Assembly: GCA_051652765.1 (NCBI GenBank)
Contig: JBOFUV010000010.1
Location: 1-15,123 of the forward strand
From: Microcoleaceae cyanobacterium
GTDB taxonomy: Bacteria > Cyanobacteriota > Cyanobacteriia > Cyanobacteriales > Microcoleaceae
DNA length: 15,123 nt
Direction: 5' to 3'
Of this stretch, positions 1 to 15,123 are shown one piece after another. The first letter of the stretch is position 1; every line of letters begins with the position of its first letter. The position numbers and the translations under genes are program-made. The notes beneath the pieces were generated by a model. The model was not told the origin of the DNA. It searched no databases and saw only the letters and a list, made by a program, of their open reading frames with translations.

Positions 1-108
1 GTTATCTTGCCAGCGCACCACAGCTTCCCTGTGGAGTTGAACCGAAGGGCGACTGACTATGTTGAGAGAGGGTTTGCATCATCTGCGCTGGTCGTTTTGC
101 TGAGTTAA
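1..108 (+). CDS. Possible 3' end of an unidentified gene (candidate integron cassette ORF), truncated by the window edge
   Basis: Frame 1 is open from base 1 to TAA at 106-108 (VILPAHHSFPVELNRRATDYVERGFASSALVVLLS*) and ends 24 nt before the attC-like site. No family recognised; frame 3 (stop at 54-56) is an alternative. Confidence 0.25.
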   Translation, partial: VILPAHHSFPVELNRRATDYVERGFASSALVVLLS

Positions 109-132
109 GAGACAGTCAGCTCGCCCAAGTCA

Positions 133-205
133 AGCTAACAAATCACTGCACCCGACCTGCAATAGCATTACTGGATTAATTCTGAAGCTGTTGGCGGCGG
201 GTGAG
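133..205 (+). mobile_element. Integron attC-like recombination site lacking its R' (GTTRRRY) end
   Basis: AGCTAAC (R''-like) - AAATC (5 nt) - ACTGCAC (L''-like) - CCGAC... The left arm CT[G]CACCCG[A]CCTGCAATAGC pairs with the right arm GCTGTTGGCGGCGGGTGAG with two extrahelical bases. Sequence after GTGAG is hsdM coding sequence, not R'. Confidence 0.7.
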
Positions 206-1150
206 GCGATCCAAGACCCAGCAGCGGGGACGGGCGGTTTTCTAGTGGCGGCGGATCAGTATGTTAAGAAGCAGACGGATGATCTCTATACCCTGAGCTC
301 GGATCAGGGGAATTTCCAGCGCCATGAGGCGTATCGAGGGTTGGAGCTAGTGCCCGATACGCATCGGCTGTGCCTGATGAATTTGATGTTGCATGGCATT
401 GAGAGTACGGTGAACTGTGGGGATAGCCTGTCACCCGATGGGGAGACGCTGGGTAAAGCAGATGTGATTCTGACGAATCCGCCATTTGGGACGAAGAAGG
501 GCGGCGGACGACCCACGAGAGCGGATTTTTCTGTAACGGCAGAAACCTCTAACAAGCAGTTGGCGTTTGTCGAGCATATTTACCGTGCCCTGAAACCGGG
601 CGGCAGGGCGGCGGTGGTGCTGCCGGATAATGTGCTGTTTGAGGACAATACGGGGCGGAAGCTAAGACAGCAACTGATGGAATTGTGCGATCTACACACC
701 ATTTTGCGCTTGCCGACGGGGATTTTTTACGCGCAGGGTGTGAAAACCAATGTGCTGTTTTTTACACGAGGTCACTCGGATCGCGGCAACACTAAAGCGG
801 TTTGGGTGTATGACCTGCGGGCAAACATGAACAGCTTTGGCAAAACCGGGCTGCTGACCGTGGCGGATTTTGCCGAGTTTGAAGCGGCGTTTGGGGATGA
901 CCCCTTGGGGAAAGCCCAGCGCACCGATCAGGGCGAGGAAGGGCGGTTTCGTTGCTTTAGCCGTGAGCAGATTGCCGATCGCAATGACAATCTGGATATT
1001 GCCTGGTTGCGCGACACTAGCAATGACCCAGAGGATGAACTAACGGAGCCGGAGGAGATTGCAGCGGCGATCGCCACCCATTTGGGCAATGCATTGCGAG
1101 AAATTGAGATAATGATGGGTGAGTTCACCCAAAAGGGAGATAAATCATGA
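191..1150 (+). pseudogene. hsdM: Type I RM N6-adenine methyltransferase subunit HsdM, 5'-truncated (C-terminal ~320 aa)
   Basis: Motif I DPAAGTGGFL, motif IV TNPPFG, GGRAAVVLPDNVLF, LRLPTGIFYAQGVKTN, LDIAWL. The N-terminal helical domain and the GQ(Y/F)FTPR motif that normally precedes motif I are absent; upstream in-frame sequence is the attC-like site, with a stop at 101-103. TTG start has no clear RBS. Confidence 0.9.
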
Positions 1151-1764
1151 TTGCTCAAGTCCAGCCCTCATTGATGACCGTTGCCGAGTATCTCGCCTGG
1201 GAAGCCGAGCAACCGCTGAAGCATGAATATATCAATGGCGAAGTTTACGCCATGACGGGCGGGACACTTCCCCACAATGACATTGCCGTGAATTTGACGA
1301 GTGCTCTTAGAACGACCTTACGAGGATCAGGGTGTAAGGTGCGTATGTCTGATGCGAAGGTCAGAATTGCGGCCAGCGGGCCGTATTTTTATCCTGATTT
1401 GGGGGTGAGCTGTGACGAGCGTGACCGACGGGCAACGGATGCCATCCAATATCCCAAGTTGATTATTGAGGTGTTGTCACCGAGTACCGCTGGGTTTGAC
1501 CGGGGGGATAAGTTTAAGTTTTACCGCCGCATCCCGATGCTGCAAGAGTATGTGTTGATTGATGCTGAGAAGGTGGGGGTGGACTGCTATCGCAGAACCA
1601 GCGCGGGTAGATGGGAACTCACCGCTTACCCAGAGGATGCAGCGGATGTGGAAAATCCGATTTTAGAATTGGTGAGCCTGGATTTTCAGTGTCCATTGGC
1701 GTTGATCTATGAAGAGGTGGAACTTACCCAGCCATTATCAGAGGATAATTTGCAATCGGGATAA
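1147..1764 (+). CDS. Uma2 (DUF820) family PD-(D/E)XK putative endonuclease
   Basis: EYLAWE, HEYINGEVYAMTGG..PHN, YFYPD, LIIEVLSPST...DRGDKF..Y, LQEYVLID. Start overlaps the hsdM stop (ATGA). Confidence 0.93.
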   Translation: MIAQVQPSLMTVAEYLAWEAEQPLKHEYINGEVYAMTGGTLPHNDIAVNLTSALRTTLRGSGCKVRMSDAKVRIAASGPYFYPDLGVSCDERDRRATDAIQYPKLIIEVLSPSTAGFDRGDKFKFYRRIPMLQEYVLIDAEKVGVDCYRRTSAGRWELTAYPEDAADVENPILELVSLDFQCPLALIYEEVELTQPLSEDNLQSG

Positions 1765-1796
1765 AGTCGCCTTAATGATTTCTAGAAATTAGACCT

Positions 1797-2042
1797 ATGA
1801 CATTACAAGAATTAAAACAGCAAGTATTGGATCTGCCCACGGCGGATCGCTGGATGTTGCTCAAGCTGTTAATTGAGAAGAACGATCAGGCGATCGCCGC
1901 AAAAGGAGACAACTGCATGAGTGATTTGCCAATGGGGTGGGAGCCAAACCGCGATCGCCCGATGATCGCCAAGCATTTACGGGCAGATCTGGCAAAGATG
2001 GAGACGTTTACTCAGGAGATGAGCCATGAAAACCCAATCTGA
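1797..2042 (+). pseudogene. Chimeric ORF: N-terminus of a small antitoxin-like protein (1797-1876) fused in frame to repeat copy 1
   Basis: MTLQELKQQVLDLPTADRWMLLKLLIE resembles small cyanobacterial addiction-module-type proteins (recall, unsearched); from 1877 the frame is the repeat (KNDQAIAAKGDNCMSDLPMGW...). Confidence 0.6.
1877..2014 (+). repeat. Junction repeat copy 1 (138 bp): HIP1 - RBS - hsdS head - HIP1 - hsdM-like tail
   Basis: Ungapped match to 2668-2805 (15 mismatches in 138 by hand count); first 84 bp match 3879-3962 (5 mismatches). HIP1 at 1890-1897 and 1951-1958. Confidence 0.95.
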
Positions 2043-2319
2043 AGTTTTGCAGATGTTAGCCCAGCAAAAATCGTCGTTGTTGGCAAATTATCAAATTACC
2101 CGGCTAGGGATTTTTGGGTCTTATGCCAGAGGGGAACAAACGGATGATAGTGATATTGATATTTTAGTTGAGTATGAGAATGCTCCCAGTTTATGGCAAT
2201 TAATTGAGTTAAGAGATTATTTGAGTGAGTTGTTTTCCATTAAGGTTGATGTGGTGACACGAAATGGTTTGAAGTCAAGAATTAAGGAAAGAGTTTTGGC
2301 GGAGGTGATTTATCTGTGA
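2026..2319 (+). CDS. MNT (minimal nucleotidyltransferase) antitoxin, MntA-like
   Basis: 97 aa, GS-x10-DxD motif (FGSYARGEQTDDSDID), KVDVV; GTGA overlap with the downstream HEPN gene. Confidence 0.93.
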   Translation: MKTQSEVLQMLAQQKSSLLANYQITRLGIFGSYARGEQTDDSDIDILVEYENAPSLWQLIELRDYLSELFSIKVDVVTRNGLKSRIKERVLAEVIYL

Positions 2320-2669
2320 CGAAACGTAGTCTCTTAGAGTTTTTACAAGATATTTTAGAGGCGATCGCTGATATTGAGTCTTTTACCTCAGGTGTTGATT
2401 TCGCCGCTTTTGTCACAAATAAAGAGAAAGTTTTGGCGGTTGTCAAGCTGCTAGAAAATATTGGGGAAGCTGTGAAGCAAATTCCTGATGATCAACGCAA
2501 CCTTTATCCACAGATTCCTTGGAAATCTGTCGCAGGAACGCGAGATATTTTCGTGCATCAATACTGGGAAATCGATACCGATGTGGTATGGGCAACGCTG
2601 CAAGATTCTTTGCCGTTGCTGAAGACGGTGATTGGACAAATGGCTGCTCAAGAGGAGACAAACCCATGA
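2316..2669 (+). CDS. HEPN (DUF86) RNase toxin, HepT-like
   Basis: 117 aa, LENIGEAVK, PQIPW, R-x4-H motif RDIFVH followed by QY (the Tyr position AMPylated in characterised HepT/MntA pairs). Confidence 0.92.
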   Translation: MTKRSLLEFLQDILEAIADIESFTSGVDFAAFVTNKEKVLAVVKLLENIGEAVKQIPDDQRNLYPQIPWKSVAGTRDIFVHQYWEIDTDVVWATLQDSLPLLKTVIGQMAAQEETNP

Positions 2670-2805
2670 AGAACGGTCAGGCGATCGCCGCAAAAGGAGA
2701 TAACTGCATGAGTGATTTGCCAATGGGGTGGAAGCTCAACCGCGATTGCCCAATGAACGCCAATTATTTACGGGCAGCTTCGGCAGAGATTGAGACGTTT
2801 ACTCA
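2668..2805 (+). repeat. Junction repeat copy 2 (138 bp)
   Basis: ~89% identical to 1877-2014; HIP1 at 2681-2688, degenerate HIP1 (GCGATTGC) at 2742-2749. Lies in a 58-aa ORF at 2666-2842. Confidence 0.95.
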
Positions 2806-2808
2806 TAG

Positions 2809-2842
2809 GGAAAGAGTTTTGGCTGAGGTGATTTATTTATGA
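2809..2842 (+). pseudogene. 3'-terminal remnant of an MNT gene (ERVLAEVIYL*)
   Basis: 31/34 nt identical to 2286-2319, the end of the first MNT gene; differences are synonymous. Confidence 0.88.
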
Positions 2843-3144
2843 ATACAACTCAAGAAGCAATTGTTGATTGTTTACGGCAACAGTTGGATTATTTAAGGGA
2901 GCAATTTTACGTTAAAAGAATTGGTCTGTTTGGTTCATTTGCTACCGAGACAGCAACCGCCACTAGTGATGTTGATCTAGTCATTGAGTTTGATCAACCG
3001 ATCGGCTTAAGATTTGTCGATTTATGTGACTATCTGGAAGCTTGTTTGGGCCGAAAAGTGGATGTTTTAACCCCAGCCGGAATCGCAACGATCCGGAATC
3101 GGTCGGTGGCTGAAAGCATTGCCAGGAGTCTGGTTTATGTCTAA
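2839..3144 (+). CDS. MNT antitoxin, orphan (cognate HEPN apparently deleted)
   Basis: 101 aa, FGSFATETATATSDVD motif, LGRKVDVLT, C-terminal LVYV. Confidence 0.9.
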   Translation: MNTTQEAIVDCLRQQLDYLREQFYVKRIGLFGSFATETATATSDVDLVIEFDQPIGLRFVDLCDYLEACLGRKVDVLTPAGIATIRNRSVAESIARSLVYV

Positions 3145-3214
3145 GCGGGGCGATCGCAATGGTCTCAAGCTGCGGATTTGCGATCGCGTGTTATCAGAGG
3201 TGATTGATGTATGA
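3137..3214 (+). pseudogene. 25-aa deletion-scar ORF: HEPN-like start (MSKR) fused at a HIP1 site to an MNT C-terminus
   Basis: ATG 3137 to TGA 3214 reads MSKRGDRNGLKLRICDRVLSEVIDV*; the tail aligns with the first MNT's RNGLKSRIKERVLAEVIYL. HIP1 at 3150-3157 (junction) and 3180-3187. Confidence 0.8.
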
Positions 3215-3525
3215 ATATTAATAACGAATGTGTTGCACCCGTATTAGATCAGGTTGTCCCGATTTTGCAGGCTCTCAAACCTTATCTATATGAACGATGG
3301 GGTATTACTGAGTTGGCCATATTTGGCTCGGTAGCGCGGGGTGAGTCTCAAGCGGATAGTGATATTGATATTCTGTTTGACTACGATCGCCCGTTGGGGC
3401 TAGAGCTAGTGATGTTGGGGGATTTTTTAGAGGAAAAGTTGCAAAACAAAGTGGATTTGCTCAGTAAAAAAGCTGTTCGTCCCAGAGTTTGGGAGTTTAT
3501 TGGCGATGAGATGCACTATGTCTAG
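3211..3525 (+). CDS. MNT antitoxin, MntA-like
   Basis: 104 aa, FGSVARGESQADSDID motif, KVDLL; overlaps the downstream HEPN start. Confidence 0.92.
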   Translation: MNINNECVAPVLDQVVPILQALKPYLYERWGITELAIFGSVARGESQADSDIDILFDYDRPLGLELVMLGDFLEEKLQNKVDLLSKKAVRPRVWEFIGDEMHYV

Positions 3526-3880
3526 GCGATCGCTGGCGTTATTATTGGCAGACATGATCGACTGTATCGACAAGTTGGCGATCGTCACGGCTGGCTTGAA
3601 TTACGAAGAATTTTGTACTGATGTCAAAGCGTTCTATCCAGCGATGTCTTTAGTTGCAATTTTGGGTGAAGCTGCCAATCAAATTGCCAAGGTTGAAGTA
3701 ACGCTACCCGACACGATTCCCTGGCAAGCAATTCGCGGGATTCGTAATCGTGTGGTACATCAATATTTCGATATCGATAGCCAAATTTTATGGTTGGTTG
3801 TTTCGGTCGAAATTCCTGGCTTGAAGGCTCCTTTACAGGAATTATTGAATATTTATAATGCTCAGGGAGGAAACCCATGA
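3518..3880 (+). CDS. HEPN (DUF86) RNase toxin, HepT-like
   Basis: ATG 3518 (MSRRS...) overlaps the MNT stop and is preferred over TTG 3500. ILGEAAN, IPW, R-x4-H motif RNRVVH followed by QYFDID. Confidence 0.92.
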   Translation: MSRRSLALLLADMIDCIDKLAIVTAGLNYEEFCTDVKAFYPAMSLVAILGEAANQIAKVEVTLPDTIPWQAIRGIRNRVVHQYFDIDSQILWLVVSVEIPGLKAPLQELLNIYNAQGGNP

Positions 3881-3962
3881 AGAACGATCAGGCGATCGCC
3901 GCAAAAGGAAACAACTGTATGAGTGATTTGCCAATGGGGTGGAAGCTCAACCGCGATCGCCC
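3879..3962 (+). repeat. Junction repeat copy 3 (first 84 bp only); supplies the start of the resident hsdS
   Basis: 5 mismatches to each of copies 1 and 2; similarity ends 2 nt after the HIP1 site at 3953-3960. Another HIP1 at 3892-3899. Confidence 0.95.
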
Positions 3963-4638
3963 TAGGAGTCATGATTGGAAAAGAGCAACAGTTGGAGAAC
4001 TGATCGATGGCATAGAAGCCGGTATAAATGTTAAGTGCGAAGAGCGTCCACCCCTACCTCATGAATTTGGTCTTGTAAAGATTAGTGCTGTTACATGGGG
4101 AACATTTGATGATGAGAAAAGTAAAACACTTCCTCCTAATCAGCTAATACCTGAATCAACTCGAATTAGAGTTGGAGATTTCCTTATTTCTCGTGCCATT
4201 GAATTAGTTGGAGCATGTGTAATTGTAGAGCGTGTCACACACCCTGTGTATCTCTCCGATAAGGTTCTTAGGGTTCTAGTTCGAGAAAATTATAAGCAAT
4301 GGCTCTTATTATGGTTGCGTTCTAAGAATGGTCGATCTCAAATAGAGCAGCTTGCTAGTGGAAACCAGCTATCTATGAGGAATCTGACACAAGCAAGTCT
4401 AAAATCTATTAAGTTGAAGCTTCCTTCTGAAGATGAGCGAGATGAGATCATCCGGCGAGGTGAAAAGCTGTTCAAAGCCATTGATTTGATCGAGCAGGAA
4501 TATCAAAAAGCCAGCAAACTGCTTGACCGATTAGAGCAAGCCACCCTCGCCAAAGCCTTCCGGGGTGAGCTTGTACCCCAAGACCCCAACGATGAACCCG
4601 CAGCGGTATTGCTAGAGCGGATTCGGGCCGAACGGTAG
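3919..4638 (+). CDS. hsdS: Type I RM specificity subunit HsdS, half-length (one TRD); possibly a pseudogene
   Basis: MSDLPMGW start after AAAGGA; one TRD (W...TVGELI...GDFLISRA...NLTQASLKSIKLKLPSEDERDEI), coiled coil and conserved end LEQATLAKAFRGELVPQDPNDEPAAVLLERIRAER. 239 aa from ATG 3919; alternative coupled start at 3877. Confidence 0.85.
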   Translation: MSDLPMGWKLNRDRPRSHDWKRATVGELIDGIEAGINVKCEERPPLPHEFGLVKISAVTWGTFDDEKSKTLPPNQLIPESTRIRVGDFLISRAIELVGACVIVERVTHPVYLSDKVLRVLVRENYKQWLLLWLRSKNGRSQIEQLASGNQLSMRNLTQASLKSIKLKLPSEDERDEIIRRGEKLFKAIDLIEQEYQKASKLLDRLEQATLAKAFRGELVPQDPNDEPAAVLLERIRAER

Positions 4639-4694
4639 ACACAGCCCAAGGGCAAAGCGGTAAAATCGAAGCAGTCACAAAGTCGAGGTACAGG

Positions 4695-4916
4695 ATGAGT
4701 CCTCTCCTAGAAAAAGTCTTAGCAGAAGTCGCTCAACTCGATCCCAAAGAGCAGTTACAACTCGTCTCCTATCTGGTCAACCGTTGGCAACAACAGCCGA
4801 ACCTATTTGCAGATAAAAAATTCAGCCGTAAAAACTTGTTTGGTTGTATGCAGGGCAAAATAAAAATCGCCGAAGATTTTAATGCCCCACTCCATGACTT
4901 TGCCGAGTATATGTGA
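4695..4916 (+). CDS. DUF2281-type antitoxin (VapB-like partner of the PIN toxin)
   Basis: 73 aa with C-terminal FGCMQGKIKIAEDFNAPLHDFAEYM signature; GAGG RBS; stop overlaps the PIN gene start. Confidence 0.85.
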   Translation: MSPLLEKVLAEVAQLDPKEQLQLVSYLVNRWQQQPNLFADKKFSRKNLFGCMQGKIKIAEDFNAPLHDFAEYM

Positions 4917-5302
4917 TGAAGTTATTGTTAGATACGCATATCTTCATTTGGTTGATAGACGGCAATCAAAATCTTAGCCAAACTGCCAGACAAGCAATAG
5001 AAGATGAAAGCAATCGTTTGTATCTCAGTATTGCTAGCCTATGGGAAATAACCATTAAAACTAGCCTGGGCAAACTCGAACTTGGAATACCACTCGAACA
5101 GATCGCAACCAATTTTATCCTTCCCAGTGGCATTGAAGTTTTACCAATTCATCTCCCGCATTTATTCGTGTTACAAACTCTACCCTTCCATCACCGAGAT
5201 CCATTCGATCGATTGTTGATTTCCCAAGCCAAATCTGAATCGTTAACGTTGGTATCCGAAGATAGCTTGTTTGAGCAATATGAAGTGGAGACGCTTTGGT
5301 AA
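4916..5302 (+). CDS. vapC: PIN-domain (VapC-family) ribonuclease toxin
   Basis: MKLLLDTHIFIW, SIASLWEITIK, LPFHHRDPFDRLLISQA, TLVSED. ATG 4916 (TGATG overlap) or GTG 4913. Confidence 0.93.
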   Translation: MKLLLDTHIFIWLIDGNQNLSQTARQAIEDESNRLYLSIASLWEITIKTSLGKLELGIPLEQIATNFILPSGIEVLPIHLPHLFVLQTLPFHHRDPFDRLLISQAKSESLTLVSEDSLFEQYEVETLW

Positions 5303-5310
5303 GTCATTTT

Positions 5311-5472
5311 ATGTTATTCGGCGATCGCCTTGAGCAAGCCACCCTAGCCAAAGCCTTCCGGGGGGAGCTAGTGCCCCAAGACCCCAACGATGAACCCGCA
5401 GCGGTATTGCTAGAGCGCATCCTAGCCGAGAAACAAGACTCGCCAAAGCGTAAACCTATAAAATCGCCCTAG
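5311..5472 (+). pseudogene. hsdS: Second copy of the hsdS 3' end (53-aa ORF) beginning at a HIP1 site
   Basis: MLFGDRLEQATLAKAFRGELVPQDPNDEPAAVLLERILAEKQDSPKRKPIKSP*. 5332-5430 vs 4534-4632: 9 mismatches in 99 nt. HIP1 at 5321-5328 encodes the first shared residues (DR). Confidence 0.92.
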
Positions 5473-5550
5473 AAATCTAGACAGCGAAGCTGACGATCGC
5501 CCCGATTGTCACTCATCTACAATCAGACTAGCACTAGTCAGGTACCACTG

Positions 5551-5640
5551 ATGACTTCCATTCCGGCCAAGCCATCCCCACTCCATCGCTATCCCGATTG
5601 GAAGCTCGAAGATGCCAAAGCTCGGTTTAGTGAAGTCGTT
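5551..5640 (+). pseudogene. Phd/YefM antitoxin N-terminal fragment
   Basis: ATG 5551; WKLEDAKARFSEVV matches the Phd/YefM N-terminal pattern; similarity stops at 5640 and no toxin gene follows. Confidence 0.75.
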
Positions 5641-5664
5641 TTGCTAAGGGGAGGTTGGGAGGGG
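5641..5664. repeat. G-rich half of a cyanobacterial small dispersed (REP-like) repeat
   Basis: TTGCTAAGGGGAGGTTGGGAGGGG resembles the right arm of C-rich/G-rich cyanobacterial dispersed repeats (recall); no C-rich left arm is present. Confidence 0.5.
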
Positions 5665-5736
5665 TTTGATGAATTGTATATTCAACACAAAACGGTATCA
5701 CTACAAGAAAAAGCCAATCACCAGGGATAAAAACGC

Positions 5737-8700
5737 ATGACATCTTTGTTAGACAATGCAATATTTGGGAATGAAAGTTCCAACCTGCTAGTTGGCACCC
5801 CAGCAGCAGACACAATATTTGGAGGCCAGGGCGCGGATAATATTGTTGGAGGGGCAGCAGCAGATTTCCTCTACGGCAATACTGATGCCGATGTTCTCTA
5901 TGGATCTCAGGCCGATGACTTCCTTTTCGGTGGCCAAGCCAATGACTTAATTCTTGGGGGTCAGGGCGATGACGAGATCTCTGGCGATGACGGTAACGAT
6001 ACGATTCACGGGGATCAAGGAGCTGATCAACTCACTGGAGGTTCAGGAGCAGATACCTTTGTGGTTGCCCCTGGAACCGGAGGATCGAGCCTTTCCCAGG
6101 CTGATTTAATCCTTGACTTCGCTGTTGGGGAGGATGCGATTCAACTCACAGCAGGGTTGACCTTCGCCGATCTGGAGATTTTGACGAACGGAGAAAACAC
6201 CGTCATTCAAGATCAAACAACCGCTGAAATTTTTGTCGTTCTGCAAGGCGTTGACCAGGAGACCGTGACTGAAGACAGCTTCTTGTTTGAACGTTCGGCT
6301 TTGCCTCCTGCAGATTCTCCTGATGAACCCCCAACGGAGGAACCAGAGGAACCAGACGTTCCAGACAGTGTAGATTTTGAACCCCCAGTCCTTGACGCGA
6401 GGCTAGCGAACGATACCGGCGGAAACGGCAAGGATCTGATCACCTCCGATCCAAGGGTAATTGGCAGTTTCAGCGATAACGTTGGCATTGATCATCTGGA
6501 AGTTAGTCTGAATGGCGGCGACTTCACCACGGTCTTTCCCACTTTCAACAGTGCGGGCAACTTTATCTTGGCTCGCGGCGATCTGGAATTCCTTCAGGAA
6601 GGTCGATTAACTGACGGGGACTACACGGTGAAACTACGAGTTGTAGATACTTCTGACCTAGTGTCTGAAGTAGCAACCGTAACCTATACCTTGTCAACCC
6701 AAAGACCTCCAGTTGACCCCCCAGACACTCCCCCCGTTGATCCTCCAGAACCGACTCCTCCCCCCGAACTGCCTGATCCCGAAGTGATTCGGGATGCGCC
6801 GATTGTGGTGATTGATCCCCCCGTGCCAACGCCGCCCCCCGCCATTGGAACGGGTACAGAACGTCCTGTATTGGAAGATCCAGGTAATACAGTTGCAGAA
6901 GCCTTGGCGATCGCAGGCAGTTCCGGTACCTTGACTTACAAGGAGCAGGTGGGGGAATCTGATCCCGATGACTTCTACGATATTTCGGTGGGAGCCAGTA
7001 GCAACCTGATTCTTTCTTTAACTGGGCTGAGCCATGATGCCGATCTGTTCCTCCTGGACAGCGCGGGCAACGTGATTCAAAGTTCGGAGGGGGCTGAAAG
7101 CGCCGATGAATTGATCACGCAACCCTTGGAATTTGGCACTTATGTTGTTCAGGTGAAATCCTATGACCTAGAAACTACAAACTATGCCCTCAACATCACG
7201 CTGACTTCTAACCTGCCAGGAATTACCACTGATGCTCCAGATGGAGTAGTCGAGCTGTTCACCGCTGAATCTTCCCAATTAATTCACCTTGAACCCTATA
7301 TCGATAACGGTGGCACCTTTTTCCAGGGATTCCGCAATGATCCCCAGTTTGCGGGAATTGATGGCCGGGGCTTTTCGACCGTGATCCTTGATACTGGCAT
7401 TGACCTAGATCATCCGTTCTTCGGGTCAGATACCGATGGTAATGGCGTTGCCGACCGGATCGTCTTCAGCCACGACTTTGCCGATAATGACACTGATGCT
7501 AGCGACGTTGATAACCACGGCTCTAACGTTTCTAGTATTGTTGCCTCCCAGGATGAATTCGAGACTGGCATGGCTCCCGGCGCAAATATCATCCATTTGA
7601 AAGTATTCCCTGATGATCCCAACAGCGATGTAAACGTAAATTATGCCATTGAACAAGCCATGCAGTGGGTTGCACGCCATGCCGATGAATACAATATTGC
7701 TAGCGTCAATATGTCCCTGGGTTCCGCTAACTATGCAGAACCAGTTAACGGTTATCTGTCGGATGAACTTTTGCTCCTAAGGCTGAAGAACGTAATTGTT
7801 GTCGCTGCCGCTGGAAACGACTTCGGTAAGAATAATAGTGCTCTGGGTGTTGCTTACCCTGCCGCTGACCCCAGTGCTTTAGCAGTGAGTGCAACCTGGG
7901 ATGAGGATGTTAATACGTATATACCTAATCCTGCAATATTTGGAGCACCAATACCGTTGCCAATCCTTTTTGAGCACTCAACGGACTTTTCTACAGATGC
8001 TTATCGAATTATCAGTTTCTCCCAGCGCGATCCAAATTTAACTGACATCTTTGCACCGGGGGGTTTGATTACCGGGGCAAACGCCAATGGAGGCACAGTT
8101 GACCAATCAGGAACCAGTCAGGCTGCTCCCCACATCGCTGGAATTGCCGTTCTCGCTCAGCAACTGGCCGTTCAGGAGTTGGGTCGTCGTCTGACGTTTG
8201 ATGAATTCAGGGACGCGATGATCATCTCAGCTAATCCTGTTATCAATGACGGAGACGATGAAAACGATAGCGTCACCAATACCGGGTTGGATTATCCCTT
8301 TGTGAGTGTTCAGGGTTTGGGAGAATATATCCTTTACTTGGCGAGCATCGAGAATCCGGAACCGCCGCCACCACCGCCAATTCCGGTCACTCAGTACAAC
8401 TTCGTTTACCTTTACGATGGAGGGACGGGAACCAGTAACGAAGGTTATTCGGGTTATACCTATGCCGAGCCTGGAACCTTTACGGTAGGAAGCTTGTACG
8501 ATCCGTTCTCAGGGTTCAATGAAAGAGGCACAAATGGAGCGTACTTCATCAGGAGTGAACAGCCAGCTCCTAGCGAAGCGCTCCTGGGTCAGACATACGT
8601 CGAGCGGTACATTGCAGACTTTGCCATCGAAAACTTAGTCAATGTTAATACTGCTGTTCCTTACTACTTCAGTGTCGGCAGTCCCTCAGGGTTTAATGGG

Positions 8701-8847
8701 ATCGGCAGTGAATATGACTATGTTCAGACTGTGGATGCAGGTGGACAGCGAATCGTTTCTGATGACTTTGGGCAGGATTACTATGCTGCAAACATTTATG
8801 ATGATGAGCTAGGTGAGATAGATGGGCCTATTGGTATTATGCTTTGA
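5737..8847 (+). CDS. Multidomain Ca2+-binding S8 (subtilase) serine protease: RTX repeats, Ig-like domain, Pro-rich linkers, PPC domain, S8 domain, unknown C-terminal domain
   Basis: GGxGxD nonapeptides near the N-terminus; LANDTG...DLITSDP Ig-like repeat; DPDDFY...LSLTGLSHDADLFLLD...GTYVVQV PPC domain; triad VILDTG / NHGSNV / GTSQAAPH and oxyanion AAGN. Confidence 0.92.
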   Translation: MTSLLDNAIFGNESSNLLVGTPAADTIFGGQGADNIVGGAAADFLYGNTDADVLYGSQADDFLFGGQANDLILGGQGDDEISGDDGNDTIHGDQGADQLTGGSGADTFVVAPGTGGSSLSQADLILDFAVGEDAIQLTAGLTFADLEILTNGENTVIQDQTTAEIFVVLQGVDQETVTEDSFLFERSALPPADSPDEPPTEEPEEPDVPDSVDFEPPVLDARLANDTGGNGKDLITSDPRVIGSFSDNVGIDHLEVSLNGGDFTTVFPTFNSAGNFILARGDLEFLQEGRLTDGDYTVKLRVVDTSDLVSEVATVTYTLSTQRPPVDPPDTPPVDPPEPTPPPELPDPEVIRDAPIVVIDPPVPTPPPAIGTGTERPVLEDPGNTVAEALAIAGSSGTLTYKEQVGESDPDDFYDISVGASSNLILSLTGLSHDADLFLLDSAGNVIQSSEGAESADELITQPLEFGTYVVQVKSYDLETTNYALNITLTSNLPGITTDAPDGVVELFTAESSQLIHLEPYIDNGGTFFQGFRNDPQFAGIDGRGFSTVILDTGIDLDHPFFGSDTDGNGVADRIVFSHDFADNDTDASDVDNHGSNVSSIVASQDEFETGMAPGANIIHLKVFPDDPNSDVNVNYAIEQAMQWVARHADEYNIASVNMSLGSANYAEPVNGYLSDELLLLRLKNVIVVAAAGNDFGKNNSALGVAYPAADPSALAVSATWDEDVNTYIPNPAIFGAPIPLPILFEHSTDFSTDAYRIISFSQRDPNLTDIFAPGGLITGANANGGTVDQSGTSQAAPHIAGIAVLAQQLAVQELGRRLTFDEFRDAMIISANPVINDGDDENDSVTNTGLDYPFVSVQGLGEYILYLASIENPEPPPPPPIPVTQYNFVYLYDGGTGTSNEGYSGYTYAEPGTFTVGSLYDPFSGFNERGTNGAYFIRSEQPAPSEALLGQTYVERYIADFAIENLVNVNTAVPYYFSVGSPSGFNGIGSEYDYVQTVDAGGQRIVSDDFGQDYYAANIYDDELGEIDGPIGIML

Positions 8848-12827: not shown

Positions 12828-15123
12828 ATGTCTTTTAACTCTGAAAATATCAATGGTGTTCTGGGAGATATCCAGCAAATTTCCCAAGAATTGTTAACCA
12901 CAACTGCTAGTGATGAACTAGCATTTTCCACCCTCATTAGCACTGTCTTTAGGGATAGCGATAACCCTGCAATAGTAGAGCAACTGCGGCAGGCTTGGGC
13001 CAGTGGAGACTTCAGTCAGTTACCAACGATTGACATTCGCTCGGCCCAAGAAATTAATGGCGGGGCGGGAGCTTATGCAGCCTCGACGAACACGATTTAT
13101 CTGTCTCAAGAATATCTGCTCCAGAACATTAATACTCCTCAAGTTGTTGCTGAAGTCTTGCTCGAAGAAATTGGTCACTTTGTAGATGCTCAGATTAACT
13201 CAGTAGACTCCCAGGGAGATGAAGGCGAGTACTTCTCAGCTCTAGTTCGGGGTGTTACTCCCAGTAGCGGGCAACTTCAAGTCCTGCAAGCCGAAAATGA
13301 CGCTGCTACTGTTTTACTCGATGGAACCTGGACTCAGCTCGAAAATGCGGTTCTGAGTTTTTCTGGAGATATTCAGCAGCTTGCCTCTCTGGGAAATTTT
13401 TGGTGGAATGAGGCAACACAACCTGCCCCGACTTATTCAGAACATCGTGCCCCTAGAGCTAATGTCTTACAATTTTTTGAGGAAAGTCAAAATGTCTTAC
13501 TGTCAGAAGATATCGAAATTAGCTTCGTCAATGATTGGGACAATCTGACTAATTTAAACACACTCCCAGCAGGCATTACCGTTGACAGTCATTATGTCTA
13601 TCTGAATCGGCCCATAGGTCAGGGAAATACGATTGAAGTCACAGCAACTCTCACCTTTGATGCACCGATTGTTGGGGTCATGGGAGATCCATCTCTGATC
13701 AATCCCAGCAATAGTTGGTTTGTTCCCTATACAGCCAGACCTATTTCTCCTCGTGGCACCCTGGACATGACAGACAATGGTTTGGATGTTGTTGAGATTA
13801 ATGGGAATACATTGACGGTAACTTTCAAGAATACGTCAGCCATGGATCCGTTGCGGGTAATCACCTCGGATGGAATGCCAACGCCAACACCAACACCTGA
13901 CCCAACCCCGACCCCAACTCCAGTTCCAACTCCTACCCCCACTCCTGAACCCAGTCTGCCAATTCGCATCGAAGCAGAGAGTCTGGCCTTGTCAACAGGT
14001 TACAGGGTGGCGACTGGAGCTTTTGCATCGGCTGGCCAGTATATTGGCCTAAATGATAATCTCGTTGCCGAAGGTGAGTCGCGAACTGCAACGACCACGT
14101 TTACTGGAGATGCTGGAGTATACGAGGTCACCATTAGCTACTTTGATGAAAATGATGGGGTTTCCGATGCAGCGTTCACCCTGAATGGCAATCCGGTTGA
14201 GACCTGGCAATTTGATGCAGCGTTGCCAGGAAGTCGCCCTGCAGCAAATACCCAAACGACTCGTACCTTAACCCAGTTGGTTACGCTTGCTCCAGGAGAT
14301 ACAATTGGGCTTCAAGGCAGTAGAAACGCAGATGAACTGGCTCGCTTCGATTACATTGAGTTGGTATTGCAGCCCGATCAAAACCAGGCTCCCACAGCCA
14401 TCGCCCTCAGCAACAACACCGTTAACGAAAACGCAGTCGAAGCTGTCATCGGCAACTTAACTGTTACTGATGTGGATGACACCAGCTTTACCTACAGTGT
14501 TAGCGATGCCCGGTTTGAAGTGGTAGATAACGCGCTGAAACTCAAAGCAGGTCAGTTCCTAAATTACGAAACTGAACCTAGTGTTCTAGTAACTGTTACG
14601 GCAACTGATTCAGGTTCTTTGAGTACCACTCAAGAATTCACTGTTACTGTCAACAACGTTAATGAAGCACCCACAGCCATCGCTCTCAGCAACAACACCG
14701 TTGACGAAAACGCAGTCGAAGCAATCATCGGCAACTTAACTGTTACTGATGTGGATGACACCAGCTTTACCTACAGTGTGAGCGATGCCCGGTTTGAAGT
14801 GGTAGATAACGCGCTGAAACTCAAAGCAGGTCAGTTCCTAAATTACGAAACTGAACCTAGTGTTCTAGTAACTGTTACGGCAACTGATTCAGGTGATTTG
14901 AGTACCACTCAAGAATTCACTGTTACTGTCAACAACGTTAATGAAGTACCCACAGCCATCGCCCTCAGCAACAACACCGTTAACGAAAACGCAGTCGAAG
15001 CAATCATCGGCAACTTAACTGTTACGGATGTGGATGATACCAGCTTTACCTACAGTGTTAGCGATGCTCGGTTTGAAGTGGTAGATAACGCACTGAAACT
15101 CAAAGCAGGTCAGTTCCTGAATT
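12828..15123 (+). CDS. Large secreted or surface adhesin-like protein (partial, at least 765 aa): EEIGH N-terminal domain, unknown beta-rich domain, Pro/Thr linker, CBM6/35-like domain, cadherin-like repeats
   Basis: Translated by hand: TAAGGA RBS, MSFNSENING..., GAYAASTNTIYLS, VLLEEIGHFVD...DSQGDEGEYF, PTPTPTPDPTPTP, IRIEAE...ARFDYIEL, then APTAIALSNNTVNEN...LNYETEPSVLVTVTATDSG...NNVNEAP repeats. No stop before the window end, so it is missing from the ORF track. Confidence 0.9.
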   Translation, partial: MSFNSENINGVLGDIQQISQELLTTTASDELAFSTLISTVFRDSDNPAIVEQLRQAWASGDFSQLPTIDIRSAQEINGGAGAYAASTNTIYLSQEYLLQNINTPQVVAEVLLEEIGHFVDAQINSVDSQGDEGEYFSALVRGVTPSSGQLQVLQAENDAATVLLDGTWTQLENAVLSFSGDIQQLASLGNFWWNEATQPAPTYSEHRAPRANVLQFFEESQNVLLSEDIEISFVNDWDNLTNLNTLPAGITVDSHYVYLNRPIGQGNTIEVTATLTFDAPIVGVMGDPSLINPSNSWFVPYTARPISPRGTLDMTDNGLDVVEINGNTLTVTFKNTSAMDPLRVITSDGMPTPTPTPDPTPTPTPVPTPTPTPEPSLPIRIEAESLALSTGYRVATGAFASAGQYIGLNDNLVAEGESRTATTTFTGDAGVYEVTISYFDENDGVSDAAFTLNGNPVETWQFDAALPGSRPAANTQTTRTLTQLVTLAPGDTIGLQGSRNADELARFDYIELVLQPDQNQAPTAIALSNNTVNENAVEAVIGNLTVTDVDDTSFTYSVSDARFEVVDNALKLKAGQFLNYETEPSVLVTVTATDSGSLSTTQEFTVTVNNVNEAPTAIALSNNTVDENAVEAIIGNLTVTDVDDTSFTYSVSDARFEVVDNALKLKAGQFLNYETEPSVLVTVTATDSGDLSTTQEFTVTVNNVNEVPTAIALSNNTVNENAVEAIIGNLTVTDVDDTSFTYSVSDARFEVVDNALKLKAGQFLN
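14391..15123 (+). repeat. Intragenic tandem repeat, 279-bp unit (93 aa, cadherin-like), at least 2.6 copies
   Basis: CCCACAGCCATCGC recurs at 14391, 14670 and 14949; units are nearly identical. Confidence 0.96.

Follow-up and report, generated by a model that had tools for sequence, protein, structure and literature searches.

How do toxin-antitoxin (TA) and nuclease genes come to be stacked between pieces of a type I restriction-modification (RM) operon when no integrase lies beside them? The question is raised by the window, a 15,123-nt stretch that forms the entire contig JBOFUV010000010.1 (C10) of a Microcoleaceae cyanobacterium (GCA_051652765.1; genome G000), in an assembly of 5.04 Mb that is 99.97% complete with 0.18% contamination. 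In the window, a shortened hsdM is followed by genes for Uma2, MNT, HEPN and PIN proteins, interspersed with short repeats and a shortened hsdS (Table 1). A preliminary description read this as an integron-like array without IntI, in which the hsd gene ends act as landing pads and the octamer HIP1 (GCGATCGC) as the crossover point. The reading favored here, at a probability of roughly 0.6, is that host recombination extends the array, using the RM gene ends retained in it; on present evidence, it is not a new cassette machine. Loci, genomes and contigs carry the prefixes L, G and C.

The delimiting repeats are indeed pieces of the hsd genes, as had been proposed. Positions 1877-2014 match 2668-2805 at 89% identity over 138 nt, 1877-1960 match 3879-3962 at 94%, and 4534-4668 match 5332-5466 at 85%, with no copy elsewhere in the 5.04 Mb assembly. 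Repeats 1 and 2 resolve into an hsdM tail, an hsdS start, a linker and an hsdM end. In the cargo-free loci L032 and L033, the ~40 nt ahead of hsdS are the acidic tail of the ancestral hsdM; because these loci reveal the origin of the tail, both repeats can be read as a composite joint made of the old tail, the first 8 codons of hsdS, a linker of ~20 nt and the last ~22 codons of hsdM. On the alignment, the linker could be either a degraded stretch of hsdM or a leader of foreign origin whose last bases are a start codon. Among themselves, the three copies of tail plus start in the window are 94-95% identical; to the tails of relatives they are 58-75% identical, and they follow three different cassettes.

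A full joint with a recognizably shared linker is present in the window, twice in L028, in L105/L106 (counted once) and, with a more divergent linker, in the one-contig complete genome G016 (L015). These are four genomes among 27 loci compared, and the surrounding cargo differs in each. In all six full joints, the reading frame opened by the hsdS start continues into the hsdM end despite indels of 6 and 12 nt; one of the six later gained a stop codon. Finding the joint with different cargo on both sides supports what appears to be the reuse of one joint across the four genomes. In the hsdM tree, the joint-bearing rows fall in an unresolved polytomy (L015 is absent from the tree). Simpler duplicates also occur, namely the hsdM end alone in L016 and the hsdS start alone in L108 and L030, and outside the cyanobacteria there are copies of the hsdM end in L091 and of the hsdS end in L058. 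The former duplicate (Thiorhodococcus, L091:8600-9282) flanks a 94-aa gene and the latter (Caldilineaceae, L058:12196-14150) a 540-aa gene; in Oscillochloris, numerous short repeats lie behind hsdM (L071:10746-11870). The joint was not found in 143 other genomes of the family, where the single weak match (G296) is a chance one centered on HIP1. The hsdM allele was likewise not found in two genomes of the same genus, a plasmid search returned distant homologues only (60-75%), and a phylum sample of 400 genomes added one locus, apparently from the same organism as L041.

Cargo turnover was followed in the DNA around hsdM relatives, comprising 20 loci with cyanobacterial titles (L025-L044) and 59 others (L045-L103); the nearest relatives of the window's hsdM are cyanobacterial. 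Twelve of the 20 have an hsdS C-terminal block downstream and could be scored, while three of the other eight carry hsdS upstream, four end inside cargo, and one has no visible hsdS. Nine of the 12 hold 659-3635 nt of genes inserted between hsdM and hsdS; the remaining three comprise one 300-nt gap without a clear gene and two loci in which hsdM and hsdS overlap by 4 nt. Outside the cyanobacteria, an inserted gene was found in 2 of 51 scorable loci (L046 and L091), after exclusion of seven without a detected hsdS end and one inverted duplicate, and three further apparent gaps are frameshifted hsdS genes. The loci are kin, so 9/12 and 2/51 are given without a statistical test. The inserts draw on a shared pool of MNT, HEPN, PIN, ParE/RelE-type, DUF433/DUF5615, XisH/XisI and Uma2 genes, along with small unnamed genes situated ahead of toxins. 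In one clade of cyanobacterial type I RM systems, the site where hsdM meets hsdS is a slot of variable content, occupied by co-oriented TA-type and Uma2 genes.

Both the content and the order of the cargo vary among relatives, as the preliminary description expected, and the single fixed gene order that it named as the contrary case was not seen. Three close pairs illustrate the changes: L108 and L109 differ in the block adjoining hsdS, whereas L027 and L031 (98.9% identical over 5.2 kb) and L041 and L042 (96%) differ by deletions and one insertion. Cargo shared with the window is 72-91% identical to that of relatives and hsdM 81-87%, and because the two ranges are alike, no very recent transfer is seen. 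In L037, L038 and L039, hsdS stands upstream of hsdM with cargo around it. Across the flanks of 19 loci, the RM unit sits in a different neighborhood in each genome.

Gene-end copies also delimit two other arrays in this genome. In a second type I operon, on contig C109, the hsdM-end copy spans 161 nt at 88% identity and opens with a start codon joined to the HIP1 core, and hsdS and hsdR are intact. On contig C148, an array cleaner than that of the window lies behind an Eco57I-type gene, and its delimiter is the 3' end of another, type IIG-like gene. Its blocks are four MNT-HEPN and three XisH-XisI blocks, with extras that include DUF2283. The C148 delimiter gave five matches among 300 other genomes. 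G678 contains the intact type IIG-like parent gene followed by two further 3'-end copies, in G171 there are three copies and HIP1 is absent over 16 kb, one extra copy occurs in G619, and G561 and G577 have a single copy. G678, G171 and G619, three other cyanobacteria, have arrays related to that on C148. Within a 58-nt core, identity to the parent runs 58, 55, 49, 53, 49, 51 and 51, proximal copy first, the eighth copy being truncated; copies 3-7 have derived changes in common, although the cassettes that they head differ. For this one array only, the pattern suggests newest-first growth together with copying of the delimiter itself. A third type I methyltransferase with a specificity gene (G000:C34:179900-185747, minus strand) is followed by MNT-HEPN and further TA-like genes without internal repeats.

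Gene fusions in these arrays tend to stay in frame. Of 25 assignable gene-fragment fusions, 19 are in frame, and with six more read by eye the count is 22 of 30; microhomologies between the same genes (words of 3-7 nt) are in phase in 40-53% of cases, giving an in-frame excess at p 0.0003 to 0.019 (0.0003-0.016 for 19 of 25). Every scar in the window is in frame and ends on a stop codon that overlaps the next start. Toxins and antitoxins are retained unequally. In 25 loci there are 30 intact toxin genes, and all but one have an intact antitoxin immediately upstream; the exception has a DUF2281-like frame fused ahead of it. Of 58 antitoxin-type genes, a class to which small genes are presumed to belong by position, 29 are not followed by an intact toxin, in one case owing to a contig end. 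These patterns suggest that the arrays were translated as a chain and that toxins were harmful when unpaired. Translational coupling of hsdM and hsdS is stated for EcoKI (PMC3510504).

The shared joint, the microhomology junctions, the gene-end copies and the turnover of cargo point to host recombination. An incoming allele, probably taken up by natural transformation, would pair at one end by homology and join at the other by microhomology, or the incoming DNA would circularize and enter by a single crossover; either route would leave a gene-end copy of 60-170 nt. ComEC and DprA are encoded in the genome. Once a joint (hsdS start, then hsdM end) is present, a joint-bearing donor could append a downstream block through two homologous crossovers, which would turn a slot that can only be replaced into one that can be extended. 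Deletions at microhomologies would then trim the array, with toxins removed before antitoxins, and arrays that survive would tend to keep the frame and the overlaps of start and stop codons, since the ribosome-binding region of every cargo gene is located in the gene end before it. A precedent exists in E. coli, where single crossovers of re-circularized DNA left gene-end duplications of 109-950 bp and homology-facilitated illegitimate recombination (HFIR) produced junctions with 3-10 bp of microhomology (PMC3240628).

Several points weigh against growth by host recombination. No append event was caught directly, and a search of the genus and the family turned up no close relative of the allele. 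Most relatives' arrays lack the full joint, implying that other routes also add cargo, and the joint may be inherited within blocks rather than reused, which the hsdM tree cannot tell. A length of 65-85 nt is short for homologous recombination, and the window's own RM system is dead. Cargo only 72-91% identical, like hsdM, means that the shuffling may be old. The fusion list was hand-picked from automatic breakpoints, its loci are kin, and some fusions may be natural variants.

The chief rival is one-off debris, in which the products of rare illegitimate events or tandem duplications eroded and the joints were passively inherited. Scars predominate, cargo identities are old, the window's RM genes are broken and the joint is missing from most arrays, all as debris would have it. 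Such an origin is nonetheless unlikely: the joint with its linker stands between different cargo in each of four genomes, the three tails peculiar to this lineage come after three different cassettes, and five C148 delimiters share derived changes while heading different cassettes.

Descent by deletion alone from a large ancestor of fixed order would explain why deletions are many and some scars shared (L015 and L111 have one in common), and why the MNT3-HEPN2-tail block is shared whole with L106 and L109. The gene orders contradict it. Uma2 stands ahead of MNT1-HEPN1 in the window and behind it in L028; between L029 and L035, Uma2 and MNT8-HEPN10 have exchanged positions; and DUF2281-PIN precedes hsdS in L029 and follows it in the window and in L039, where the hsdS end is succeeded by the same pair. 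Deletion from one fixed ancestor is therefore largely refuted by these conflicts, and with two cyanobacterial loci and nearly all outgroups free of inserts, a deletion-only history is rated improbable.

HIP1 is dense in the array: 11 of the window's 14 sites fall within 1067-5328, one per 387 bp, compared with one per 1556 bp across the genome (3238 sites), although among the 11 one site is represented by three copies and another by two. The proposal that several boundaries fall on HIP1 stands for the sites at 3150-3157, 3953-3960 and 5321-5328, and fails for the other eight of the 11. The site at 1951 lies inside the joint linker and marks no rearrangement edge; those at 1890, 2681 and 3892 lie 13 nt within the repeat and are absent from relatives' tails; and those at 1067, 2361, 3180 and 3526 are ordinary sites common to relatives, the first (1067-1074) being conserved within the final 30 codons of hsdM'. 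The position of 5321-5328 is also occupied by HIP1 in the intact hsdS of L025 and L036. The native DNA ahead of the window's second target-recognition domain (TRD) was not found, the closest match having 61% protein identity, so the junction at 3962 cannot be called two-sided.

Breakpoints were obtained by mapping each array against intact genes of other loci, which gave 60 in 14 HIP1-rich loci, again kin; HIP1 counted as present within 3 nt, and the expectation came from rotation. Measured against local density, the enrichment is real, with HIP1 at 6 of 60 breakpoints where 1.27 are expected (rotation p 0.002); leaving out the window gives 4 of 53. Of 139 control words of 6 or 7 nt lacking GATC, none reached this extreme, and the two strongest overlap HIP1. 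The breakpoint list contains at least three false ends (two contig ends and one divergence), misses the window's 3962, and includes a borderline hit in L107. An all-against-all comparison, with 28 of 427 alignment ends at HIP1 and 7 expected, was set aside, as it counted the conserved hsdM site once per locus. Two junctions run from HIP1 to HIP1 (L025 at 14527 and L036 at 11688). In the Pseudanabaena loci L036:10991-12630 and L043:11038-11840, a different repeated spacer of 40-60 nt, 88-98% identical, begins in each of its five copies at HIP1 or at the HIP1 core. Other junctions use non-HIP1 microhomologies, often shared start or stop motifs.

If HIP1 were the specific crossover site of an integron-like system without IntI, its enrichment at breakpoints, the three window junctions and the two two-sided junctions in relatives would follow, as would the fact that copies of the hsdM end begin at the HIP1 position of hsdM or within it; HIP1 site-specific recombination in PCC 7002 is also cited in PMC4390886. 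That role for HIP1 nevertheless has little to recommend it. Breakpoints lie away from HIP1 in 54 of 60 cases, cargo-bearing intervals free of HIP1 occur in L029, L041 and L115, and gene-end delimiters occur in loci without it (L219, with three copies and no HIP1 in 16 kb, L091 and L058). The tail sites are lineage gains inside the repeat, and on C148 the left edges lie +18, -18, -21, -1, +2, -10, -3 and -18 from the parent's near-HIP1 site, 3 of 8 within 3 nt. The idea that HIP1 is the crossover point is thus not upheld, as HIP1-free loci build like arrays. At these junctions HIP1 is favored (~5-fold), minor and dispensable. It would act as a helper, an abundant shared 8-mer and possibly a methylation-dependent recombination enhancer, with no role as an attachment site. 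Favored but dispensable HIP1 agrees with the accessible literature, in which PMC4390886 cites both site-specific (PCC 7002) and illegitimate recombination at HIP1, homologous and methylated HIP1 raise integration efficiency in PCC 7002 (10.1101/2024.09.10.611283), a DNA-uptake role is proposed (PMC13756078), and the function of HIP1 is described as unresolved (PMC5861425). Near G000:C148 110390 and 104610, and near L216 10190, a 13-24 nt insert splits the delimiter's HIP1-like site after its third base, the mode of insertion that PMC4390886 describes for the small repeat SDR5.

The last mechanism to consider is a recombinase acting in trans, either an integron integrase or another tyrosine recombinase. 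Integrons are built from IntI, attI and attC. The genome appears to hold a decayed, dispersed integron, with 40 attC-like motif matches, intI fragments and seven tyrosine-recombinase matches (none on C10), and an attC relic adjoins hsdM. That the window lacks an integrase was correctly described; it does have, at the left end, an empty cassette with a truncated attC, which is multi-copy in the genome, is no delimiter of the array, and is fused to hsdM via ~9 nt of microhomology (196-204). An empty integron-type cassette of ~135 nt with attC occurs in many copies, for example at G000:C74:39585-39925, alongside only broken intI pieces. Genome-wide, the best intI fragment scores 63.9 bits against a cut-off of 265, with none on C10, and this contig's sole attC-like match, at 135, lies outside the array. 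A scan of 69 of 119 flanking ORFs from 19 loci, plus one hsdR, found no tyrosine integrase and no conserved recombinase, only one resolvase (beside a cargo-free operon) and one DDE transposase. The delimiters are coding-gene ends with ragged edges, and a trans-acting recombinase is very improbable. Of the integron-like array without IntI, the co-oriented, variable cassettes are borne out; the imprecise edges, internal scars and lack of attC at the boundaries do not fit. The likeness is one of outcome, and the ragged edges speak against precise excision and insertion. As far as the assemblies can show, collapse of several strains is negligibly probable: the window starts at a contig edge on a multi-copy element, but its repeats are 85-94% identical with unique flanks, contamination is 0.18%, the same joint occurs in independent assemblies including one-contig G016, and arrays occur in chromosome-level L029 and G678.

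The detailed anatomy of the window is set out in Table 1. The reported gene order, orientation and repeats were reproduced by the open reading frame (ORF) listing and Pfam, with all array genes on the plus strand. Pfam names hsdM' (N6_Mtase), Uma2, three MNTs, two HepT-like HEPNs, Methylase_S and PIN; DUF2281 scores 25.7 bits, slightly below its cut-off of 26.5. The label "Phd fragment" for the short ORF after the second hsdS end was not confirmed, as it has no family match in Pfam or NCBIfam at E<=1.

Table 1. Features of the window array and of two similar arrays in the same genome
Feature	Position	Strand	Remarks
Integron-type empty cassette, attC truncated in right arm	1..205	+	Fused to hsdM
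hsdM', type I methyltransferase	196..1150	+	Pfam; stop overlaps Uma2 start
Uma2 family putative endonuclease	1147..1764	+	PADLOC candidate PDC-S03
Small gene, first 27 codons only	1797..1877	+	Reads in frame into joint 1
Joint 1	1877..2042	+	Single open frame to 2042, overlaps MNT1 start; old hsdM tail 1877-1916 (HIP1 1890), hsdS start 1917-1941, linker with HIP1 1942-1964, hsdM 3' end 1965-2029
MNT1 (2026-2319), HEPN1 (2316-2669)	2026..2669	+	Both intact
Joint 2	2668..2842	+	Linker HIP1 decayed by one base; stop overlaps MNT2 start
MNT2	2839..3144	+	Intact; orphan, HEPN partner deleted
Scar	3137..3214	+	HEPN first 7 codons and MNT1-type last 18 codons, in-frame fusion
MNT3 (3211-3525), HEPN2 (3518-3880)	3211..3880	+	Both intact
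Half joint 3 (tail, hsdS start, linker)	3879..3962	+	Cut 2 nt past HIP1 3953-3960
hsdS', 239 aa	3919..4638	+	hsdS start and linker fused in frame to second TRD and C-terminal block
DUF2281 (4695-4916), PIN (4913-5302)	4695..5302	+	VapBC-like pair, intact
Second hsdS 3' end	5318..5485	+	Other allele, 85% to first; starts at HIP1 5321-5328
Short ORF	5551..5730	+	No family match
Second type I operon (L207)	G000:C109:23371-28342	-	hsdM, MNT, HEPN, hsdM-end copy, DUF433, DUF5615, hsdS, hsdR
C148 array (L206)	G000:C148:104500-113340	-	Eight type IIG-like 3'-end copies, seven TA-type blocks

The type I RM operon seen in the preliminary description is represented by hsdM and hsdS, but both are truncated and no matching hsdR was found in the genome. 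The hsdM' gene lacks the first ~163 of ~507 codons and matches residues 164-507 of a relative's ~508-codon frame; hsdS' retains one of two TRDs, corresponding to only the second half of the gene. Relatives such as L025 have a 1128-aa hsdR immediately upstream, and a genome search with a relative's hsdR returned only a 27% fragment, with the EcoEI_R_C family not found. Judged from its genes, the window's RM system is evidently dead. The hsdS' gene is a single-TRD gene in an open frame, alongside the truncated hsdM. In other type I systems, a half-subunit HsdS with a single TRD can work as a homodimer.

Within the cargo, the truncated small gene is a putative antitoxin, whose relatives of 81-86 aa mostly precede a PIN gene. 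Joint 2 runs, through an in-frame deletion, into the final 11 codons of an MNT1-type gene. In the scar, the HEPN part ends exactly at the 3' edge of HIP1 3150-3157, and the stop overlaps the MNT3 start. MNT-then-HEPN order is accompanied by R-x4-H-x-Y and G-S-x10-D-x-D motifs in the window's translations, and these are the motifs of HepT/MntA. Pfam HepT-like and NTP_transf_2 score above cut-off, NCBIfam matches fall below the equivalog cut-offs, and a phmmer search of the PDB found no solved relative of HEPN1. The MNT-HEPN and DUF2281-PIN genes are predicted TA pairs. Promoter and terminator scans are at chance level (11 versus 7.9 and 8 versus 5.4), and Rfam gave no match in positions 1-6000. 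A sigma-70-like match (11/12) lies at 3832-3859, at the end of HEPN2 and upstream of hsdS'; it is not conserved in L106, and the scan overall is at chance. Farther along, positions 5737-8847 encode a 1036-aa subtilase that also carries calcium-binding repeats of RTX type, a PPC domain and an Ig-like domain, and 14388-15123 contain three tandem 279-nt repeats, 96-97% identical, that extend to the contig end.

Genes embedded in type I RM operons are already known. Payne et al. (2024; 10.1101/2024.01.29.577857) report embedding in type I RM, BREX, DISARM and Hma systems, with the same kind of co-oriented extra genes between core RM genes as in the window, and the window's Uma2 and three MNTs match their PADLOC candidates PDC-S03 and PDC-S09 (profile matches of candidate status). 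Here, a complete surrounding RM system was not found in the window, the cargo is nearly all TA-type, and the RM core is dead. The available text of that preprint describes no gene-end delimiters, HIP1 or stacking mechanism, limits its Hma search to <=3 genes per gap, and leaves the significance of embedding open. In mechanism, the closest parallels are minimal mobile elements and polymorphic-toxin arrays. Minimal mobile elements of Neisseria (PMC3787668) likewise have variable content between conserved flanking genes, without a recombinase and in a competent host; they are described as replaced between flanks, whereas here flank copies lie inside and blocks accumulate. Polymorphic-toxin arrays (mafB-CT, cdiA-CT and rhs orphans; PMC4287609, PMC2935791) are also integrase-free, lie downstream of a main gene and exchange by recombination, but their cassettes are alternative toxin C-termini, exchanged onto that main gene together with immunity genes; the cargo here consists of whole, unrelated MNT, HEPN, PIN, ParE, Uma2 and XisH/XisI genes headed by the last codons of an RM gene, which sets it apart.

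Like an integron, the array is promoter-poor, co-oriented, variable and TA-rich, and C148 suggests an age gradient; unlike one, it lacks IntI and attC at boundaries, its edges are imprecise, and its scars are many. HFIR and single crossovers (PMC3240628) share homology at one end and microhomology at the other, but HFIR in that source usually leaves a deletion rather than a duplication, the precedent is from E. coli only, and here the event is repeated many times at one locus. With HepT/MntA (type VII) and VapBC, the window shares intact pairs whose start and stop codons overlap, two of MNT-HEPN and one of DUF2281-PIN type, although its proteins score below the NCBIfam equivalog cut-offs. A search of titles and abstract starts, mostly outside subscription journals, found no paper on RM-gene-end-delimited TA arrays or on HIP1 at such junctions. 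Nor did the literature searched contain the shared joint, the type IIG array or a measurement of how many such junctions fall on HIP1.

These arrays bear on how RM hotspots gain genes, a point that the preprint of Payne et al. leaves open: they keep their joints, making the mechanism readable and testable, and the joint itself is a ready substrate for a transformation assay. Gene-end repeats provide a simple, annotation-free way to find such arrays. In natural junctions, HIP1 is about five-fold over-represented, explains one tenth and is dispensable, which fits an uptake or recombination helper. A bolder and distinctly tentative extension is that in cyanobacteria the last codons of RM genes, both type I hsdM/hsdS and type IIG-like, might serve as self-propagating, recombinase-free append sites. 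Each copy would provide both the homology at which another insertion can take place and the ribosome-binding region for the cassette that follows it; entry would occur beside the RM gene, displacing older cassettes outward, and the rate would be raised by methylated HIP1. If true, these would be actively growing TA and defense arrays, a counterpart of the integron that needs nothing beyond host recombination, and would preserve in nature a record of crossovers assisted by HIP1.

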